From: a virus
Taxonomy: Duplodnaviria > Heunggongvirae > Uroviricota > Caudoviricetes
Virus record (IMG/VR): IMGVR_UViG_2534681831_000019
DNA length: 9,894 nucleotides
Reading direction: 5' to 3' (one strand)
Made by a program: the position numbers
Part shown: positions 6,001-9,000 of the stretch, in pieces
Layout: every line of letters begins with the position of its first letter
How positions within the stretch are numbered: position 1 is the first letter of the stretch

Positions 6001-9000
6001 TATGGTGGGCCGTTTTCTTCGTATACGGATGATGGCGCAGCACTTATTCAGGCGATTGTCGCAGAAGGTGATGTGAGCACACCTGTTGTGGTGAAGCCGA
6101 CAGGTGGAGAAGGTGCAGTAATCAGCGCCACCAGCGACCCCGGGTATTACTTTGTTGTGGTTCTGGCAGGGCAGTCAAACGGCATGTCGTATGGTGAAGG
6201 TCTTCCGCTGCCGGAGACATATGACCGTCCGGACCCGCGCATTAAGCAGCTGGCGCGTCGCAGTACGGTGACACCGGGCGGTGTCGCCTGTAAATATAAC
6301 GACATCATTCCGGCGGACCATTGTCTGCATGATGTGCAGGTACATGAGCCGCCTTAACCATCCGAAAGCGGACCTGTCAAAGGGGCAGTACGGAACCGTG
6401 GGGCAGGGGCTGCATATCGCCAAAAAACTGCTGCCGTTTATACCGGCGAATGCGGGCATTCTGCTGGTTCCGTGCTGTCGTGGTGGTTCAGCGTTCACCA
6501 CCGGAGCCGATGGCACATACAGTGACGCGAGTGGTGCCTCGGAGAATTCAACCCGCTGGGGTGTGGACAAGCCGCTGTATAAGGACCTTATCGGTCGAAC
6601 AAAAGCAGCACTGAAGAAGAATCCGAAAAATGTGCTGTTTGCCGTGGTGTGGATGCAGGGGGAATTTGATTTTGGCGGTACGCCGGCAAATCACGCAGCA
6701 CAGTTTGGTGCGCAGGTTGATAAATTCCGTGCAGACCTGGCGGATATGGCAGGTCAGTGCGTCGGTGGCTCTGCTGACGGTGTTCCCTGGATATGCGGGG
6801 ACACGACGTATTTCTGGAAGCAGAAGAACGAATCCTCGTACCAGACGGTGTACGGCAGCTACAAAAACAAAACGGAAAAGAATATCCATTTCGTACCGTT
6901 CATGACGGATGAGAATGGGGTGAATGTGCCGACGAACAAACCGGAAGAAGACCCGGACATTCCGGGTATCGGATATTACGGTTCGAAATGGCGTGACAGC
7001 TCAGCCACCTGGACGTCACAGGACAGGGCGAGCCATTTCAGCGCCTGGGCACGCCGTGGGATTATTTCCGACCGTCTGGCAACGGCGATTTTGCGCCATG
7101 CGGGAAGAGTGGCGCTAAACGCGGGGGCATCATCGACAGTATCAGAGGTGCGCCCGTCATCGCCTTCCGGTGCAGAAGCCACAGGCGTCACAACACTGCT
7201 CTCTTACCTTGCCAGCGAGTCAGAGGGAAGCCTGAAAGTACAGGGATGGTCAGCCAGTGGCGGCAGGGCAGAAGTGGTCAGCGATGCGGAGGGAACCGGA
7301 GGTAAGGCAGTGAAGCTGACCAAGGAGGCCGGTAAAAGCAGCTGGGTGCTGGAGTACGCCGCGGGCAACGGTGCGGCTCTGTTACAGAAAGGGGGGCAGA
7401 TTCGCTGCCGCTTTAAGGTTTCGGGAGCGCTGGCTGCGAACCAGTATGTTATGGCGTTTTACTGGCCGGTATCTTCACTGCCACAGGGCGTTGCCCTGAC
7501 CGGAGACGGAGGGAATAACCTGCTGGCAGCGTTCTACATCCAGACAGATGCAAAAGACCTGAATGTGATGTACCACAATGCGAAAGTGGCGACAAACAAC
7601 CTGAAACTGGGAACCTTTGGCGCATTTGATAACGAATGGCATACGCTGGCTTTCCGCTTTGCCGGGAATAACAGCCTTCAGGTGACGCCGGTTATTGATG
7701 GTCAGGATGGCACACCGTTCACGCTGACGCAGTCACCGGTCAGTGCATTTGCGGCGGATAAACTGCATGTGACAGACATTACCAAAGGTGCGACTTACCC
7801 GGTGCTGATTGACAGCATTGCTGTGGAAGTGAACAGCACAGACACTGCGGCATGATAAAAAAAACCGCCAGCGACAGGAATGGACGCTGGCGGTGGTAAT
7901 ACCTATGGAGGAAAAATAAAGGAACGATACTTTCGTGCTCTGGTTTTTTAAATGAAAACAGTTCTTATTGTCAACAATAACGGAAAGAAATTATGACATT
8001 TCTGAACCAGTTAATGCTGTACTTCTGTACGGTGGTCTGTGTGCTGTATCTCCTTTCGGGTGGGTACAGGGCCATGCGTGACTTCTGGCGCAGACAGATT
8101 GACAAAAAGGGCCGCTGAGAAAATCAGCGCCAGTCAGTCAGCCGGAAGCAAACCCGAAGAGCCGCTCATTTAGCGGCAACTTTCTTAATCACACCTTTCG
8201 ACGAGAAAATCCCATGTCAGAAATTACATCCCTGTCACTGCTGAAGCAGTGAGGGAAGTCCTGCGCTCTGAAGAAGTCCGGAGCGCACTGAAACAGAAAC
8301 TTCGCCATAACCTGGAAGCGCGTCTTGATGCAGAAGTGGATGCCATTCTGGATGAACTGCTGGGCGCACCGGCAGCTCCGGAGCCGGAAGGCATCGCGGG
8401 TGAGGGGAGTGCTTCAGATAGCGGTGACCCCACACCGGACAGCGACATGATGATGTAAGCATGCGTCAGGGACCATCGGTGTGTGCCGGTGGTCTTTTTT
8501 ATTGTTGTGAGCTTCCGGATTGCGGGAGGCGGGGTATGAACCAGATGGAAAAAATCACAACAGGTGTGTCATACACCACGTCAGCGGTGGGAACGGGCTA
8601 CTGGTTCCTGCAGTTGCTGGACAGGGTTTCCCCGTCTCAGTGGGCGGCAATAGGCGTGCTGGGGAGTCTGCTGTTTGGTCTGCTGACGTACCTGACGAAC
8701 CTGTATTTCAAAATCAGAGAGGACAGGCGTAAGGCGGCACGGGGAGAGTAAGCTGATGAGCAGGAAACTCCGCTATGGTTTATCGGCTGCCGTTCTGGCG
8801 CTGATTGCCGCAGGTGCTTCTGCGCCTGAAATCCTCGACCAGTTTCTGGATGAAAAGGAAGGTAACCACACCACGGCATACCGTGATGGTGCGGGTATCT
8901 GGACCATCTGCCGAGGCGCCATCATGGTGGATGGTAAGCCTGTGATTCCTGGCATGAAGCTGTCGAAGGAAAAATGCGACCGGGTTAACGCTATCGAACG

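Follow-up and report, generated by a model that had tools for sequence, protein, structure and literature searches.

What is the purpose of a strong hairpin that faces backwards? The question is raised by a 9,894-nucleotide (nt) stretch of viral DNA (IMG/VR virus record IMGVR_UViG_2534681831_000019, referred to as the window throughout), in which such a hairpin directly follows the stop codon of an esterase gene. It is oriented to terminate transcription on the minus strand, yet the open reading frames (ORFs) of at least 50 amino acids (aa) to its right that match annotated phage genes are all on the + strand, as had been claimed in the original prediction. The window is the late region of a Shiga toxin (Stx)-converting lambdoid phage, positions 7700-8200 being 99% identical to VT1-Sakai, VT2-Sakai and "Stx1 converting phage". 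The analysis points to the hairpin as the intrinsic terminator of an unannotated Esr41-like small RNA (sRNA) gene, which would lie on the minus strand and converge with the Stx1-esterase unit, and this reading is given a probability of approximately 0.8.

The hairpin and the predicted minus-strand gene

Beyond the esterase stop codon the + strand reads a single T and a run of eight A (A8), the eighth of which doubles as the first base of the stem. The stem is formed by A-CCGCCAGCG with CGCTGGCGG-T in ten perfect pairs, eight of them G-C, around the 11-nt loop ACAGGAATGGA (coordinates in Table 1), and the + strand sequence after it, GGTAATACCTATGG (GGTAATACC...), has no T-run. On the minus strand the hairpin runs without a gap into eight U residues (U8), placing a GC-rich stem-loop immediately before at least six U on the transcribed strand, and this anatomy of an intrinsic terminator is present on the minus strand only. 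The 10-bp stem, the A8 and the absence of a + strand T-run had all been described beforehand and were confirmed by reading the sequence, and the proposed minus-strand orientation was borne out. The minus-strand fold gave -21.7 kcal/mol with z = -5.0, and none of 200 shuffled sequences was as stable. A consensus terminator scan reported just a truncated 5-bp form (7877-7865, minus strand), because it permits loops of 3-8 nt. Between six and eight U are kept in every aligned variant. A chance inverted repeat devoid of function would have to account for the shuffling result, for conservation at the same position in hundreds of phages and for compensatory changes at the top and bottom of the stem, and its probability is negligible.

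The terminator is accompanied on the same strand by the sequence TTGACA-N18-TAAAAA about 80 nt upstream, a predicted sigma-70-type promoter with a non-consensus -10. The TTGACA is invariant in an eight-member family alignment, in which the window was aligned with the known sRNAs Esr41, PasC, PasA, EcOnc52 and EcOnc51 and two further units; the spacing to an A-rich -10 is similar, and a GCCAGC...GCUGGC+U terminator is common to the members. One IMG/VR variant (L079) has TTAAC in place of the -35. A -10-like YARAAA is found 17-18 nt past the -35 in PasC, which has been detected by Northern blotting, and in EcOnc52, which has a peak in Hfq cross-linking and analysis of cDNA (Hfq-CRAC) with no Northern result listed, while the same position is occupied by TATAGA/TAGAAA in EcOnc32 and by TATATA in Esr41. 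The spacing from the promoter predicts an RNA start at about 7938-7940. No minus-strand ORF of at least 20 aa ends at the hairpin in the ORF listing of the window.

When the 83-nt RNA was folded, the seed region was unpaired and was followed by the small hairpin GGUAUUACC and the terminator; comparable folds were obtained for Esr41 and EcOnc32, in which the counterparts of the small hairpin are GGGGUAUUCCC and GGGGAAUAUCCCC. The seed core of the window reads UCCUCCAU (7912-7905), while that of most relatives and of Esr41 reads UUCUCCAU. The layout is that of an Hfq-dependent trans-acting sRNA, with a U8 tail, an unpaired UUUAUUUUUCCUCCAUA and a seed core conserved across the Esr41-like lineages. 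The stretch AUAGGUAUUACCACCGCC distinguishes the predicted RNA from Esr41, and AUAGGUAUUACCACC is specific for it.

In the proposed mechanism the sRNA would be driven by its own promoter from within the gap between the esterase stop and the DUF1378 and holin genes, in a direction that converges with the late transcript of the Stx1-esterase unit, and the hairpin with U8 would cause Rho-independent termination, the U-tail probably doubling as a 3' Hfq-binding module. The RNA would be made in the lysogen and bound by Hfq through this tail, and its single-stranded, U-rich CUCCAU seed, of anti-Shine-Dalgarno type, would pair with the ribosome-binding sites of host mRNAs and repress their translation in the manner of Esr41 on chuA, cirA and bfr. 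Hfq binding and target regulation by base pairing have been shown for the homologues Esr41, PasC/PasA and EcOnc32. A further effect of the terminator would be to keep transcription of the sRNA out of the esterase and toxin genes, where it would be antisense.

The hairpin is equally stable on the + strand (-22.6 kcal/mol, z = -4.7) and lies 9 nt after the esterase stop, which would suit a role in the late mRNA rather than in termination, with a 3' stem-loop that shields the esterase part from exonucleases or serves as an RNase site in its processing. Stabilisation of the 3' end of the + transcript had indeed been proposed, but as a primary role it found no specific support, because the features conserved alongside it, namely the A8/U8, a TTGACA at a distance of 80 nt and the CUCCAU seed, are meaningful on the minus strand alone. 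Homologues have moreover been detected as minus-orientation sRNAs, and Esr41 has the same hairpin without an adjacent esterase gene. A + strand function of this kind is very unlikely, although a protective effect could arise as a by-product.

Table 1. Coordinates of features in the window and of matches to covariance model R1 in other loci (L numbers)
Feature	Position	Strand	Remarks
Stop codon TGA, SASA-family sialate O-acetylesterase (nanS-p-like)	7853-7855	+	left boundary of the putative sRNA slot
Predicted sRNA gene	about 7940-7857	-	~80-84 nt; conserved predicted promoter and terminator, no ORF
Predicted sigma-70-type promoter	7945-7974	-	-35 TTGACA 7974-7969, 18-nt spacer, -10 TAAAAA 7950-7945
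Predicted RNA 5' part, weak AAAG/CUUU hairpin (7933-7918)	7918-7940	-	R1 alignment spans 7940-7857
Single-stranded U-rich seed region UUUAUUUUUCCUCCAUA (predicted)	7904-7920	-	from alignments; unpaired in minimum free energy fold
Small hairpin GGUAUUACC (tentative)	7895-7903	-	just upstream of terminator; not called by RNAalifold
Terminator hairpin, 10-bp stem 7894-7885/7873-7864, 11-nt loop 7884-7874	7864-7894	-	from folds and RNAalifold
U8 terminator tail (A8 on +)	7857-7864	-	expected RNA 3' end, likely Hfq-binding tail
DUF1378 small ORF	7993-8118	+	right boundary of the putative sRNA slot; 41 aa
STnc100-type sRNA (Rfam RF02076), full-length	5476-5685	+	176.7 bits; directly downstream of stxB
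A7 run and imperfect GC-rich palindrome	5686-5725	-	right after STnc100 terminator
13-bp hairpin and T-run	8468-8497	+	-20.8 kcal/mol, z = -3.7
R1 match: Esr41, Sakai SpLE1	L005 1042-1121		30.5 bits, E ~1e-6
R1 match: EcOnc32, Sakai Sp3	L214 1282-1376	-	18.9 bits, E = 8e-4
R1 match: PasC	L003 1833-1903	-	17.6 bits, E = 0.0044
R1 matches: EcOnc52-like units	L002 2368-2449; L004 1013-1113; L006 1082-1182	-; -; +	11.7-13.4 bits, E 0.063-0.19

Relationship to Esr41 and to prophage sRNAs

An Rfam scan of the window gave two matches, STnc100 and Esr41 (RF02676). The Esr41 match (7933-7857, minus strand, 28.5 bits, E = 0.041) spans the whole model; its aligned parts are the 5' hairpin, then UUUUCUCCAU and a small hairpin of the form GGxxAUUxCC, and lastly the CGCCxGC...GCUGGCG terminator and U-tail. 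The covariance model R1 was built from alignment A3, which holds ten distinct phage-contig and E. coli prophage variants with Esr41 left out, and was searched with filters off. It matched Esr41 with the seed, small hairpin and terminator all aligned, and gave the further matches listed in Table 1, with a score of 8.3 bits for PasA. A common layout and a significant reciprocal model match were found, placing the element by sequence in the wider Esr41-like group.

Pairing was assessed on the model-guided alignment A4 (21 distinct rows), used in place of the MAFFT alignment A2, which misaligned the terminator arm of Esr41. Across the 17-pair structure 90.6% of cells form standard pairs, compared with 29-63% when the partners are slid, and for the terminator helix alone the value is 90.8%. 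Six pairs have changed on both sides, as in the top terminator pair, which is G-C in 13 rows and A-U in two; compensatory changes are present at the top and bottom of the terminator stem. The terminator is solid, while the two small upstream helices (AAAG/CUUU and GGU/ACC) are tentative and were not relied on, because RNAalifold does not recover them.

Among the closest known systems is Esr41 (EcOnc14), an Hfq-binding sRNA of the island SpLE1 in enterohaemorrhagic Escherichia coli (EHEC) Sakai. The predicted RNA has the same four-part layout, with a 5' hairpin, a single-stranded UUUUCUCCAU seed, a small GGxxAUUxCC hairpin and a CGCCrGC...GCUGGCG terminator ending in a U7-8 tail, behind a predicted TTGACA promoter with the same 18-nt spacing. 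The 10-nt seed is identical to that of Esr41 in most Stx-phage copies, whereas the core in this window differs as given above. The two are only about 76% identical over 63 nt, with no homology in the flanks and a different 5' hairpin sequence, and Esr41 lies in the ter/iha island with no esterase beside its hairpin, whereas the window copy lies in the Stx-phage late region. Esr41 represses chuA, cirA and bfr through pairing at their ribosome-binding sites, as confirmed by compensatory mutations (PMC5286369). Chimeras from cross-linking, ligation and sequencing of hybrids (CLASH) join chuA CAUGGAGAAU, ECs2279 UGGAGAAAAG and ECs1681 CAUGGAGA to the same Esr41 sequence, UUUUCUCCAUG (PMC5286369 Table EV7).

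EcOnc32 (Sakai Sp3, peak 901574-901662, minus strand) ranks second by Hfq-CRAC signal in the published table and gives a Northern band of about 112 nt (PMC4104026 Table S2). It sits just before the Sp3 holin, beside a 3' remnant of an esterase gene, and carries CAUUUCUCCACGGGGAAUAUCCCC. Like the window element it is in minus orientation upstream of a holin, with a TTGACA promoter, the seed CAUUUCUCCACGGGG followed by the GGGGAAUAUCCCC hairpin, and a GCCAGCG...CGCUGGC terminator; unlike the predicted RNA it is longer, has a larger terminator loop and is matched only weakly by R1.

PasC of enteropathogenic E. coli (EPEC) E2348/69 (Pearl Mizrahi et al., 2021) is a 79-nt RNA on the minus strand (NC_011601 1290909-1290832; PMC8550237 Table S6), detected by Northern blotting and lowered in abundance by hfq deletion (PMC8550237). 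It ends 2 nt past the esterase end at 1290830, abutting the stop codon as the window element does. PasA occupies the same esterase-side intergenic region in prophage PP2, where its minor long form ends at 743264 and the esterase stop lies at 743265. For EcOnc52 of EHEC Sakai the Hfq-CRAC peak (1181998-1182075, minus strand; PMC4104026 Table S2) abuts the Sp4 esterase stop at 1182008. The window element shares with PasC/PasA and their EHEC homologues EcOnc52/EcOnc51 the esterase-sRNA-holin position, convergent with the esterase, together with the predicted TTGACA promoter and a GCCAGCG...CGCUGGC+U7 terminator. In sequence the RNA bodies and the seeds have nothing in common, and in PasA the seed, GCCAGCACCU, lies in the terminator arm. 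Similarity of the body to the Pas family, as defined by blastn with the E2348/69 genes, was not found, only the promoter and terminator aligning, and neither the Rfam Esr41 model nor R1 scores PasC/PasA or EcOnc52/51 well. On the preferred reading, the RNA is a paralogue of Esr41 and of EcOnc32, PasC/PasA and EcOnc52/51. Zhu et al. (2026 preprint) described the esterase-PasA/PasC-holin arrangement and Rfam Esr41 hits near PasD/STnc100-type genes, an observation that fits the present locus, which that preprint does not describe.

The anti-sRNAs AsxR and AgvB (Tree et al., 2014) resemble the predicted RNA in being short Hfq-binding sRNAs encoded opposite the late transcript in lambdoid and Stx prophages, and in combining a variable targeting region with a 3' module that is conserved. 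They differ in lying directly after stxB and in having another conserved 3' sequence. Membership of this family was rejected because its motif of about 42 nt (GUAUCUCAUGC...GCCCGAACCC) is absent from the window at up to three mismatches.

Conservation of the element and the case for a functional gene

Of 5,426 complete E. coli genomes, 978 carry the 161-nt region around the element, at 2,198 places and up to seven times per genome; it is also found in 307 phage records and eight plasmid or phage-plasmid records. From IMG/VR, 80 loci were fetched through the esterase C-terminus, of which 79 reach beyond the stop codon. An R1 match (E <= 1e-3) begins 2-5 nt after the esterase stop in 75 of the 79; at this position L077, L084 and L086 are matched more weakly, and L085, which was outside the R1 search, has a predicted sRNA region identical to that of L084. 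Both Stx prophages of Sakai carry a copy, Sp15 at L092 2084-2167 (+) and Sp5 at L093 5787-5870 (-), corresponding to NC_002695.2 2922083-2922166 (+) and 1272086-1272169 (-), and the two copies differ very little from each other.

The seed core UUCUCCAU persists in the Esr41-like sub-lineages, among them the L071-type loci with an element about 73% identical over 146 nt, and in Esr41. The occupants of L074-, L084- and Pas-type are more divergent and have other RNA bodies. When the L071- and L074-types were compared with window 7857-7992, the cassette was 41-81% identical and the flanking esterase 3' end and DUF1378 90-99%, while the -35, the CUCCAU core and the terminator core persisted. Such strong divergence of the sRNA cassette, beside so little in its two neighbouring genes, suggests cassette replacement within a conserved promoter/terminator frame.

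It had been proposed that the hairpin could be a relic of a lost convergent gene. The convergent gene is upheld, but in the preferred reading it is not lost, being a non-coding RNA gene with a conserved predicted promoter (TTGACA). A silent relic, in which the promoter-terminator frame is an untranscribed, decayed sRNA cassette and the hairpin has no current function, would have to explain why the -35, seed core and terminator were kept where the cassette body diverged so far, and why the element is present in so many complete genomes. The weakness of the -10 speaks for decay, but the Northern-detected PasC is driven by the same unusual type of -10, and EcOnc32 and Esr41 have closely spaced equivalents. 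Also in keeping with a relic are the lack of a listed Hfq-CRAC EcOnc peak at the Sp5 and Sp15 copies, the scattered point differences from Sakai, one of them in the seed, and the frameshift in the neighbouring ORF. Taken together, silence through decay is considered unlikely.

Several observations weigh against an active Esr41-like gene. The Rfam score is far under the Esr41 gathering score of 102 bits, genuine Esr41 scoring 108.6, and for this reason the element is filed as a relative or paralogue of Esr41 and not as Esr41 itself. The -10 TAAAAA is without the usually critical T at position 6, which is why a consensus promoter scan did not report the promoter, and the 11-nt loop exceeds the textbook length for a terminator. 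Covariation is modest; the stem core CCGCC/GGCGG is invariant and therefore provides no covariation evidence either way, and RNAalifold on A3 predicts the terminator helix only, without compensatory changes in that closely related set. The supplementary tables of Tree et al. (2014) hold no EcOnc peak or top-100 intergenic Hfq-CRAC entry at the Sp5 and Sp15 copies, strings specific for the Stx-phage copies were unmatched among the listed rows of the CLASH tables of Waters et al., and direct expression evidence for this copy was not found, the literature search giving no paper that describes the locus. Sy et al. (2020) describe EcOnc predictions as peaks of Hfq binding at a distance of over 100 nt from a genomic feature, and report the omission of an Hfq site in Sp5 owing to a nearby ORF. 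The locus could have been hidden by this distance rule, or by the loss of Sp5 and Sp15 reads as multi-mapping because the copies are near-identical, which is not evidence of expression.

A further point of this kind is a change in the seed itself. At position 7911 the window has G on the + strand (C in the RNA), where all other copies examined have A (U), turning UUCUCCAU into UCCUCCAU and giving the 10-nt seed UUUUCCUCCAU. This variant was absent from IMG/VR by exact search and from the complete E. coli genomes searched, and, not being found in IMG/VR, it was treated as a private single-nucleotide polymorphism. Duplexes predicted in silico, to which little weight is given, were 2-2.5 kcal/mol weaker for the window than for the Sakai copy with chuA, ECs2279 and ECs1681, and stronger with bfr. 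Because of this private U-to-C change the targets may differ from those of Esr41.

Could the terminator act alone, as a pure insulator that keeps stray antisense transcription arising in the lysis region out of the toxin-esterase unit, with the RNA irrelevant? The orientation fits, and leftward transcription would presumably otherwise collide with late transcription. A pure insulator does not call for a dedicated promoter some 80 nt upstream with a conserved single-stranded seed in between, and the relatives bind Hfq and have validated trans targets, so that insulation as the whole explanation is very unlikely. The antisense-stop role put forward in the original prediction survives as a consequence of the proposed Esr41-like gene, in which the hairpin would halt leftward transcription into the esterase and toxin genes.

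The esterase-holin gap and neighbouring features

A broader but doubtful possibility is that the gap between the esterase stop and DUF1378/holin is a modular slot for sRNA cassettes, with a conserved promoter and GCCAGC-type terminator and exchangeable seed-bearing bodies. If so, the bodies (Esr41-like, PasA, PasC, EcOnc52-like and L074-type) would be swapped by recombination between phages that are otherwise 97-99% identical, and Stx1 and Stx2 phages would each add an overlooked Esr41-type regulator. Carriage of the toxin phage would then be tied to host iron uptake, colicin sensitivity and motility, and the phenotypes of esr41 deletions would be partly masked. Pairing of the RNA in cis with the late transcript, its full complement, may also occur.

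The locus is blank in all genome annotations examined, both from the Prokaryotic Genome Annotation Pipeline (PGAP) and in phage records. On the preferred reading an unexplained "backwards" terminator would become a concrete gene annotation, an Esr41-type sRNA next to the toxin and esterase genes in Stx1 and Stx2 phages. If it is expressed, Sakai-like EHEC would possess several regulators of the Esr41 type whose seeds are identical or almost so, namely Esr41, the Sp5 and Sp15 copies and the related EcOnc32, which would bear on the interpretation of single esr41 deletions and on how Stx phages rewire iron, colicin and motility regulation. As a new, unnamed member of a known group of prophage sRNAs, it would be a useful annotation and not a novel type of element, with moderate interest for those who study RNA in EHEC.

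Variants of the locus were seen in several prophages. EPEC PP2 (L002 2353-2640) and Sakai Sp12 (L006 915-1200) have two tandem sRNA units between esterase and holin, the first PasA/EcOnc51 and the second EcOnc52-like, and both units possess a TTGACA promoter and a GCCAGC terminator of their own. In E. coli FDAARGOS_1298 (L090 325-353) the stem is unchanged but the terminator loop, usually TCCATTCCTGC, is replaced by its exact reverse complement, GCAGGAATGGA. The hairpin loop has thus flipped between the inverted arms, which causes R1 to match the + strand of L090. The Sp5 esterase in the Sakai chromosome (L093 4204-5513) is interrupted by IS629, unlike that of the VT2-Sakai phage record, and the sRNA locus downstream is intact.

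The annotation of VT2-Sakai gives, in order, tRNAs, stxA, stxB, the SASA-family esterase (nanS-p), small ORFs, holin S and lysozyme R. The B subunit encoded in the window has the C-terminal end ...EVIFR*, which is that of Stx1B. Over 7700-8500 the window and VT2-Sakai show 11 differences, which are scattered and include homopolymer indels. Homopolymer lengths differ at 8104, 8234 and 8495, which could reflect either decay of genes or errors in sequencing; an additional A at 8104 shifts the reading frame of the DUF1378 ORF and shortens it to 41 aa, against 59 aa in Sakai. A + strand mini-ORF at 7880-7951 (23 aa) was rejected because it starts within the hairpin loop; on reading alone, a Shine-Dalgarno sequence was not evident and conservation was unlikely given the indels in diverged variants.

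Two further structures lie behind stxB. The STnc100-type sRNA, which the phage records examined leave unannotated, stands where related prophages have EcOnc27 and PasD. The palindrome that follows it lies at the position of partners of the EcOnc42/AsxR type; read on the minus strand it is a weak convergent terminator, with a fold no better than that of shuffled sequences (z = 0.21). The strong 13-bp hairpin at 8468-8497, with its T-run, lies within the first codons of the holin ORF (8461-8751) and may be a structure controlling the start of translation rather than a terminator.

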